DNA from: a virus
Taxonomy: Duplodnaviria; Heunggongvirae; Uroviricota; Caudoviricetes
Direction: 5' to 3' (one strand)
IMG/VR virus record: IMGVR_UViG_2657245015_000009
DNA length: 4,455 nt
Position numbers and translations under genes: made by a program
In this document: positions 1 through 2,442 of the stretch, piece by piece
Numbering within the stretch: position 1 is the first letter of the stretch
Layout of the letters: each line of letters opens with the position of its first letter
Notes under the pieces: model-generated
Seen by the model: only the letters and a program-made list of their open reading frames with translations
What the model was told of the DNA's origin: nothing
The model's database searches: none

Positions 1-2442
1 ATAGCCTGATGCATCATCACTCGGCTGACCGACAGCCTCCACGAATGCCGATTTGCCAACGGTGTTCACACTGCGAACGTAAAAATAATAATCATGGCCC
101 GGTTTGATATTGATACTGGCGGCTATCCAGTACAGTGCCGTACCAAGATAACGCGCGCTGGTTTCAACCTGCCTGATATCCGCAATCCGTTTTTCCGAGA
201 ACCAGAACTCAAACTGTACCGTCGGGTCATAAACCGCAAGATGCGGCGTGGCGGTTATCTGAAAATAGCCCGGCGTCAGCTCAATCCGCGACGGCGCTGC
301 CGGTGCGGCAATCCGGAACGATACCGACGCCGGATCGCCCTGCTGCCCCCACGCATTTACTGCCCGGACTGTCAGCCTGTAGTTCCCCAGAGCCAGTTGT
401 GTGAAGCGGTAAGTGGTTTCCGTCGTCCGGGCCGTGCTGACCAGCCGCTCACGGCCGTCATCCGCTGCCACGGTCAGGCGAAGCAGGAAGCTCACGCCCT
501 TCACCACCTTCGGCGTGTCCCAGCGGGCCAGCACCTGGTATTCCCCGCTGTCTGCGGTGACTTCTGCGGTCAGGTGCTGCACCGCTGGCGGCGTGACACC
601 ATTTACCGTGCCGCTCTGGTCGCCGTCAAAGTGCGCCCCGTTATCCACGATGGCCTCTTTTTCCGGTACATGCTGCACGGCGGTGATGGCATACGTGCCG
701 TCATCGTTCTCACGGATACTCACACAGCGGAACAGGCGCTGACGCAACGTCGGCAGCTTCAGCCCCCACACACTGTATTCTGCAACGCCGTCAGGAACCC
801 GGTTCACTTTCACCTTAAGTCCGTCGGTGACGGACTGAACCTCCACGCTGACCGGATTACCACTTCCGTCAACCAGGCTTATCAGCGTGGTACCGGAGGA
901 TGGCAGCGTGATTTCACGGTCGAGCGTCAGCGTCCGGGTCTGGCTGTTCACCGCCAGCACGCGACCACCGGTGCTGATACCGGCATAGTCATCATCGCAG
1001 ATTTCAATGACATCGCCCGGTACATGGCGAAGCCCTTCAGCACCCACGCTGAAATCCACGGTCTGCGTCTCCAGCAGTTCCGTTTTAATCAGCCACAGCC
1101 CGGCGCGGTGTGCCTGCCCCCGGCTGGTACAGCCAAAGGCATCCATCTTCGTGACATTACGACCGTAACGGGCAATGGCCTGCGTATCTTCAACAAGCTC
1201 TGTCGCCGTCTCCCAGCCGTTGTTCGGGTCAATCCAGTTCACCTCAACGGCATTATGGCGGTCCTTCAGGGCGCTGAAGCTGTAGCGGAACGGCGCGCCA
1301 TCATCCGGCATCACCACATTACTGCGGTTATAGGTCCACACCTTATCTGATGGTCGGTCCTGCACGAACGTCAGCGTCTGCCCGTTCCATACCGGCATAC
1401 AGCGCATCGCCGAGCAGAAATCACTGAGCACATCCCACGCCTTGCGCTGTGTGGTCAGGTACGCATTACAGGTGATGCGCGGCTCCGTGCCGCCAAAGCC
1501 GTCCGGCACCGACTGGTCGCAATTCTGGCCGATGACATACAGCGCCCATTTATCCACATCCGCCGCACCAAGACGTTTCCCCATGCCGTAGCGCGGATGG
1601 GTCAGCATATCCCACAGACACCAGGCCATGTTGTTGCTGTATGCCGGTTTAAACGTTCCGTCCCAGATACCGCTGTATTGCCGCGTCTGCGGGTTATAAT
1701 TCGACGGCACCTGCAGAATGCGCCCGCGAAGATGATAATTACGGCTCACCTGCTGGCTGCCGAACTGCTCCGAGTCCACCTGTACGCCGACCAGTGCCGT
1801 GTTCGGGTAGCCCTGTTTCACATCGATGATTTCGGTGTATGACGACCAGAGCGTTTTGTTCTGCAGCTGGTCTGTGGTGCTGTCCGGCGTCATTCTGCGC
1901 ATCCGGATATTAAACGGGCGCGGCGGCAGGTTATCCACCACCACCGAGGCCAGATACTGCGAGGTGGTTTTGCCCTTAATGGTGATGTCTTTTTCCGTCA
2001 CCCAGCCACCGTTACGCTGTATCTGAACCAGCAGGCGGACTTCCGACGGATTCCTGTCTCCCTTTGAGGTGGTTTCCACCAGTGCCTGTACACCGAAGGT
2101 AAAGCGCAGACGGTCGATGTTTGCCGACGTGATGGTCCGGGTGATCGGCGTGTCATATTTCACTTCCGTACCCAGCACCGTCTCGGAACCGGAGGATTCA
2201 AATCCCTCCGGCGGTGACTGCTCCTGCTCACCTGCCCGGAACACCACCGTGACGCCGGAGATGTTGGTATTCCCCTCACTGTCCAGCACCGGCGTACTGT
2301 TCAGCAGCACGCTTTTTAATCCATCCACCGGACCTTCAATCGGCCCTTCGCTGATGGCATCAATCACACTCAACAGCTGCGTGGATTTCAGGTTATCTTT
2401 CGCTTCGCGCGGGGTATGCCCCTTACTGCTGCCTTTACCCAT
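1..2442 (-). CDS. J: Tail tip / central tail fibre protein J (lambda gpJ-like), N-terminal 814 codons; C-terminal part runs off the window start
   Basis: Minus-strand ATG at 2442..2440 with GGAG 8 nt upstream and an in-frame stop just upstream (2446..2448). I checked every forward frame-1 triplet from 1 to 2442 and none is tta/cta/tca, so the minus frame is open for 814 codons. Translation begins [54 protein letters not shown] and ends at the window edge with [10 protein letters not shown], which I recognise as lambda J. Not in the ORF track because no stop falls inside the window. Confidence 0.93.

Follow-up and report, generated by a model that had tools for sequence, protein, structure and literature searches.

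The tail tip of phage lambda is the most closely comparable described system for the locus reported here. In lambda, the hub of the tip attachment protein gpJ (NP_040600; PDB 8IYK, 8IYL, 8XCG and 9E7M) is built of the domain HDII with insertions that include FNIII-A, the domain HDIII, and the domain HDIV with a beta-sandwich/OB insert at residues 483-569 (PMC10721106, PMC11101478). [quoted passage not shown] This receptor-binding domain forms the C-terminal end of gpJ (PMC11101478). Of the partner proteins, gpL provides the HDI domain and a 4Fe-4S domain and gpI is the plug (PMC10721106, PMC11101478), the HDI domain being residues 1-166 of gpL (PMC10721106). In phage T5 the counterpart of gpL, gpI and the HDII to FNIII-2 part of gpJ together is pb3 (PMC10721106). 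Long-tailed lambdoid (Stx) prophages have been reported to integrate at prfC (PMC2323221, PMC10132054).

We analysed a stretch of 4,455 nucleotides from a virus record assigned to the Caudoviricetes (IMGVR_UViG_2657245015_000009), which is referred to below as the window. Judged from its sequence, the minus strand of positions 1-2442 very probably (we put the probability at about 0.95) codes for residues 1-814 of a J protein of the lambda type, the last gene of a fragment of an L'-K-I-J tail-tip operon from an Escherichia coli lambdoid prophage, whose DNA shares 96-97.6% identity with many prophages of this kind.

A long open frame at the left edge of the window

A six-frame scan in which no stop codon was required at the edges detected a stop-free run of 815 codons on the minus strand (1-2445) that touches the left edge of the window. 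The translation of this frame opens G-M-G-K-G-S-S-K, with the ATG at 2442-2440, from which exactly 814 codons (2442/3) extend to base 1. Eight nucleotides upstream of the ATG the sequence reads as a Shine-Dalgarno motif, GGAG (2451-2454, minus strand), which corresponds to the ribosome binding site annotated at 3951-3954 (L010) in the phage 21 record OL657228. An earlier note on this DNA had described a minus-strand frame of 814 open codons, left out of the ORF list since its stop lies beyond position 1, and the edge-tolerant scan bears this out, with no stop codon present in the frame within 1-2442. As ORFs that run off an end go unlisted, a J gene whose stop codon lies beyond the window is missing from the list. 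We infer that J continues past the left edge, its C-terminal third and stop codon being to the left of base 1. Chance does not explain the frame. From the base composition, 815 codons without a stop have a probability of about 3e-14, and when the window was shuffled 1000 times by mononucleotides, the longest open run over all frames averaged 179 codons and never exceeded 357.

The frame encodes the J protein of the lambda group

A phmmer search against PDB aligned the translation without gaps to residues 1-814 of lambda gpJ (PDB 8IYK chain J and 9E7M chain Ja) with an e-value of 0 and 1830 bits. The two proteins are identical at 794 of these 814 positions (97.5%) and share the same domain order with no insertions or deletions. 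The 20 substitutions, lambda residue first, are T55S, T76S, M169V, G170D, C211G, Y307N, T368V, A519T, V542L, S547N, E560G, E608D, T659A, S664R, Q752R, T763A, I789V, R806Q, A807P and E812S. The translation also matched the PHROG 31 family ('central tail fiber J') with 1503 bits, and four Pfam domains were recovered above their gathering scores, namely FNIII-A_GpJ (residues 86-207), Phage-tail_3 (330-498), Ig_J or FNIII-1 (610-714) and Ig_J_second or FNIII-2 (716-813). These follow one another in the same order in full-length relatives. Thus the proposal that the open frame is a phage J gene, for which a comparison of the 814-residue translation with known J proteins had been suggested, is upheld by its near-identity to the lambda tip attachment protein, by PHROG 31 and the Pfam domains, and by the L-K-I-J synteny described below. 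Every defining feature of the lambda gpJ family that is visible in the window was found.

Comparison with five relatives gave dN/dS values of 0.06-0.12 for the J frame, which points to purifying selection, and 44-106 of the 59-139 differences per relative (75-86%) fall at third codon positions. Only nine sites in J are private to the window, and six of these are synonymous. Lambda DNA is only 95.7% identical to the window, so that the window is not lambda itself, and the protein comparison with lambda J covers all but its C-terminal 318 residues. Over positions 1-4340 the identity to lambda-like phages and prophages ranges from 95.7 to 97.6%, with no identical record; the best whole matches are two relatives, L001 and L003 (97.4-97.6%), which belong with those that have a J of 1159/1160 residues, phage 21 stands at 96.0%, and some match to this part of the window exists in every one of the 5426 complete E. 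coli genomes. The nearest relative changes along the gene, being L003 for codons 1-200 (99.0%), L001 for codons 401-600 (99.0%) and L004 for codons 601-714 (99.7%). By its sequence this J is a mosaic of the usual lambdoid pattern.

At a greater distance, J residues 4 to about 700 align with the F2-pyocin fibre and with further J-like proteins of the tail tip (PDB 25vf, 9l9p and 23gd), the e-values lying between 1e-85 and 1e-126, and the portion of J in the window is the part that corresponds, jointly with gpL and gpI, to the T5 baseplate hub protein pb3. The T5, F-type pyocin and other J-like proteins are distant homologues with fibres and receptor-binding parts of their own, whereas the protein in the window belongs to the lambda J group as a near-identical member. 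As regards J itself, the finding is correct, routine annotation of what is already known, and holds nothing new.

Neighbouring tail genes

Three further tail genes precede J, all on the minus strand, in an order (L', K, I, J) that is also that of lambda, phage 21 and many E. coli prophages. Gene I (2503-3174) is intact and codes for a tail tip assembly or plug protein of 223 residues, with its ATG at 3174, a TGA at 2503-2505 and a Pfam Lambda_tail_I match of 1e-28. As in lambda, its first 103 nucleotides lie within the 3' end of K. Gene K (3072-3815, ATG at 3815) is likewise intact and encodes a 247-residue protein that combines a JAB/MPN domain with an NlpC/P60 C40 peptidase (Pfam Prok-JAB and NLPC_P60). 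Exactly the same gpI protein was encountered in 3752 blocks of public assemblies and exactly the same gpK in 388, the latter always between L and I. Of gene L, only the 3' part is present (3820-4340; nucleotides 179-699 of 699, residues 61-232), which matches the Pfam Phage_tail_L profile at positions 33-206 only, and the first approximately 60 codons are absent.

The spacer of 63 nucleotides between I and J contains a GC-rich hairpin, GAAACCGCC-TGCG-GGCGGTTTT (2462-2486, minus strand; MFE -21 kcal/mol, z = -2.5), and the equivalent place in phage 21 is annotated as 'terminator'. A scan for promoters and simple terminators around this spacer called nothing, Rfam at gathering thresholds gave no match in the window, and ARAGORN detected no tRNA or tmRNA. 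The Shine-Dalgarno site, the spacer hairpin and the L-K-I-J gene order are all found in lambda as they are in the window.

Conserved and variable parts of J

The part of J in the window comprises the hub, FNIII-1 and all but about 6 residues of FNIII-2, with the helical shaft, the fibre and the receptor-binding domain lying outside. The earlier note had held that only the hub-forming N-terminal portion is present. The hub is indeed there, but 'only' is too narrow a description, in that residues 610-813 add FNIII-1 and nearly all of FNIII-2. Given the near-identity to a solved structure, the structural role of residues 1-814 may be taken over from lambda by analogy. The hub would then form a trimer under the gpM ring and, with gpL and gpI, close the tail tube, while the linker and the two FNIII domains would wrap the tail tip. 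Once the receptor signal arrives from the C-terminal parts, the hub would be expected to open by a rigid-body movement.

To quantify conservation along the protein, mean pairwise amino-acid identities were computed among six full-length J relatives for segments in lambda numbering. These amount to 97% for residues 1-200, 99% for 201-400, 98% for 401-600, 96% for 601-714 and 92% for 715-814, as against 56% for 815-900, 90% for 901-985 and 70% for 986-1132. The boundary between the conserved and variable regions is near residue 814, and hence the edge of the window sits just ahead of the first variable block. This accords with the description of the portion at hand as the conserved part of J, with a variable receptor-binding C-terminus outside: identities of 92-99% up to residue 814 stand against 56% and 70% in parts beyond it. 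Full-length relatives bear the Pfam domains Phage_Tail_Tip and Ig_GpJ_C in their C-terminal part and stop at about 1131-1165 residues, and in public assemblies J proteins of 1131, 1137, 1159 and 1165 residues adjoin identical gpI or gpK. With the C-terminus beyond the edge and the length of J differing beside identical neighbours, host range is not deducible from the window, as had been maintained at the outset.

Residues 805-814 are identical to those of a J type of 1159/1160 residues, seen in phage 21 (OL657228), in a prophage at ydfJ of strain EFF60 and in a contig of GCA_014100275, and differ from the GRASDDAEGY of lambda. This similarity is a weak hint that the missing part may be of the 1159/1160-residue type. 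None of these relatives has a truncated L or an adjoining osmY, unlike the window.

The junction between truncated L and osmY

A separate feature, which falls outside the coordinates covered by the earlier note and went unnoticed there, is the joint of the truncated L gene to a host sequence. The last 115 bases of the window (4341-4455, plus strand) are an internal fragment of osmY (nucleotides 456-570 of 606, codons 153-190), identified by BLAST and joined directly to L'. The plus-strand translation of this segment reads as OsmY. The BLAST match to E. coli osmY extends over 118 nucleotides (4338-4455) at 99.2% identity, and over bases 4341-4455 the identity to osmY of the O103:H2 strain 12009 is 100%. 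All 18 of the 18 aligned lambda-type relatives (at least 95.6% identical) lose homology exactly at 4340, and every phage or prophage alignment ends there. The complete tail-tip operon M-L-K-I-J is not found in the window: osmY stands in place of a full-length L of 232 residues, of M and H and of all that would lie further upstream. As L is reduced to residues 61-232, much of its HDI domain is lost.

A three-way alignment of the junction showed the joint to be blunt, with no microhomology, insertion sequence end or att site. It keeps the codon register, and both strands are open across it. On the minus strand an ORF at 3820-4353, for an L' product of 177 residues, borrows its ATG from antisense osmY, and on the plus strand a frame at 3682-4455 runs on into osmY. 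A match of register is a one-in-three chance, and we attach no meaning to it. The exact 31-mer across 4340/4341 had no match in genome, metagenome or viral contigs. BLAST searches with 4200-4455 and 4300-4455 against complete E. coli genomes (n=5426), plasmids and phages gave no record spanning both sides, and the junction is absent from the GTDB species representatives. In the assemblies index, the 177-residue L' product has no entry.

Two readings of this joint deserve weight. One, at a little under even odds, is a genuine rearrangement in which a lambdoid prophage resided near osmY, for example at prfC, the site occupied in STEC O103:H2 and CC119, and an inversion had its ends in L (after codon ~60) and in osmY (after codon 152). 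The gene prfC, the reported integration site of long-tailed Stx phages, lies directly upstream of osmY, and in O103:H2 12009 the genes run L->K->I->J->lom->stf->prfC->osmY in one direction, prfC being about 11 kb and osmY about 12 kb away from where L starts. If the stretch between mid-L and mid-osmY is inverted in this arrangement, the outcome has exactly the gene order and orientation of the window. The inversion would yield the arrangement J<-I<-K<-L'<- abutting osmY'->, in which the K-I-J module is orphaned and osmY is split, and a deletion after an earlier inversion would give the same result. However, the prfC prophage of 12009 is merely 75-77% identical to the tail genes of the window, the closest relative examined (EFF60, 97.4%) is integrated at ydfJ, and no second example was detected in the collections searched.

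It is almost as probable, likewise at somewhat less than even odds, that J comes from an intact, inducible lambdoid prophage and that the joint at 4340/4341 is non-biological, having arisen through mis-assembly, in a chimeric contig or by joining in silico. Such an origin is favoured by the bluntness of the joint, by its absence, and that of the L' product, from all collections searched, and by the intactness of I, K and the visible part of J, which carry no excess of private non-synonymous changes. Yet the sequence has neither Ns nor a break in composition, illegitimate recombination commonly decays E. coli prophages, and long-tailed lambdoid prophages are known at the very site directly upstream of osmY.

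A simple deletion in a prfC-integrated prophage was rejected as the origin of the joint, as the tail genes of 12009 point toward prfC and osmY, the opposite of their orientation in the window.

If the joint is an artefact, the label 'disrupted prophage' is void; if it is real, J sits in a disrupted prophage. With the inversion near prfC and osmY as its simplest form, a genuine rearrangement would have split osmY and orphaned an intact K-I-J, so that the element would make no tail with its own L, while J sequence might still be donated by recombination to other lambdoid phages.

Forward ORFs antisense to J

The ORF list contains forward frames opposite J or reaching into its 5' flank, at 94-1350 (418 residues), 413-742, 1007-1168, 1597-1842, 1826-2026 and 2069-2458. 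The earlier note had dismissed the long ones as spurious, and several lines of evidence concur. The longest, 94-1350, is the antisense frame that shares its codon boundaries with J, and it can therefore meet a stop only opposite the sense codons TTA, CTA and TCA. Just 6 of the 814 J codons are of this kind (codons 42, 76, 126, 201, 365 and 812), and the ORF lies in the gap of 446 codons bounded by codons 365 and 812, both TCA. When the codons of J were shuffled, the longest antisense run averaged 299 +/- 79 codons and reached at least 446 in 5% of cases; the length of the ORF thus follows from the codon usage of J.

That this ORF is instead a real gene overlapping J on the opposite strand is extremely improbable. 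The run of 446 codons does exceed the maximum of 357 in the 1000 mononucleotide shuffles, but the codon-preserving shuffles yield similar runs. Its frame is still open in relatives of 94-98% identity, yet four J genes that are 74-81% identical carry 3-5 stops in the equivalent region, at J codons of about 467, 564, 608-629 and 718-759, which break the frame. The apparent dN/dS values for the antisense frame are 1.8-6, as against 0.06-0.12 for J, and the product has no PHROG match and a lone Pfam match below its cut-off (20.5 versus 27 bits). An antisense gene of 272 residues has been called inside J of one relative in a public assembly (L007). On the sequence evidence we regard the ORF at 94-1350 as a non-coding artefact.

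Conclusions

Two cautions for annotation emerge from this locus. ORF tracks that demand a stop codon lose genes that run off the edge of a window, and where codon usage is biased, the antisense frame in register with a gene can look like a convincing 'ORF' of 400 residues. The 272-residue antisense call indicates that this trap is real in public annotation. The biology itself is of the textbook kind, namely a J of the lambda type whose hub and FNIII part are conserved and whose C-terminal receptor-binding part can be swapped. Only the fusion of the truncated L to osmY has some biological content; if real, it would document a decayed or rearranged prophage that has disrupted a stress gene of the host, and would be an ordinary case even then.

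The junction between the truncated tail gene L and osmY

The right end of the window carries a junction (4338-4455, joint at 4340/4341) at which L', in which only residues 61-232 of L are retained on the minus strand, meets codons 153-190 of osmY, an internal piece of this chromosomal gene that lies in the opposite orientation. The joint is blunt and shows neither microhomology nor an IS end or att site, and the junction was absent from complete E. coli genomes, GTDB representatives, metagenome and viral contigs, phages and plasmids. The gene directly upstream of osmY, prfC, is a known integration site of lambdoid prophages (PMC2323221, PMC10132054). 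The observed arrangement would follow if the DNA between L and osmY had been inverted, and it is equally possible that the junction is an artefact of assembly or concatenation.

Both strands stay open across the joint. Antisense osmY sequence supplies the ATG (4353-4351) of the truncated-L ORF (3820-4353, minus strand), while the osmY frame on the plus strand (open over 3682-4455) runs for about 220 further stop-free codons upstream, through antisense L. This double opening arises because the codon register is preserved at the joint, for which the chance is 1 in 3, and because TTA, CTA and TCA codons are rare in L, none being found among the 172 retained codons.

Separately, we noted that three records of lambda genome length submitted as plasmids of unrelated bacterial hosts, namely NZ_CP082339.1 (Salmonella, 48502 bp), NZ_CP104294.1 (Stenotrophomonas, 48499 bp) and NZ_CP068597.1 (Paenibacillus, 48499 bp), show a 95% match to lambda-type L; they look like lambda control DNA.

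The spacer between I and J

The 63-nt intergenic spacer between I and J contains, on the minus strand, a GC-rich hairpin (2462-2486) that leads into a T-rich run, and the spacer folds with -21 kcal/mol (z = -2.5). In phage 21 the equivalent site carries a terminator annotation, inside the late operon; a simple terminator scan made no call at the hairpin in the window.

Variation and mosaicism within J

Only two amino-acid changes in J are private to the window, namely I789V and a glycine at codon 211 (1810-1812), where lambda gpJ and all eight relatives compared share a cysteine. In the assembly of a related E. coli locus (L007; GCA_000258635.1, JH648165.1) J is shortened to 494 aa (11374-12855), and a 272-aa gene without a Pfam match is called inside it on the opposite strand (11974-12792), which is probably the same antisense-frame artefact as that seen in J of the window, here annotated as a gene.

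The closest relative of J changes along its length: codons 1-200 share 99.0% identity with one prophage (L003), codons 401-600 share 99.0% with a different one (L001) and codons 601-714 share 99.7% with a third (L004), which over codons 715-814 is only 83.7% identical to the window. Judged by these segment-wise identities, J (1-2442) is a fine-scale mosaic, and the succession of differing closest prophages indicates that recombination has taken place within the conserved part of the gene.
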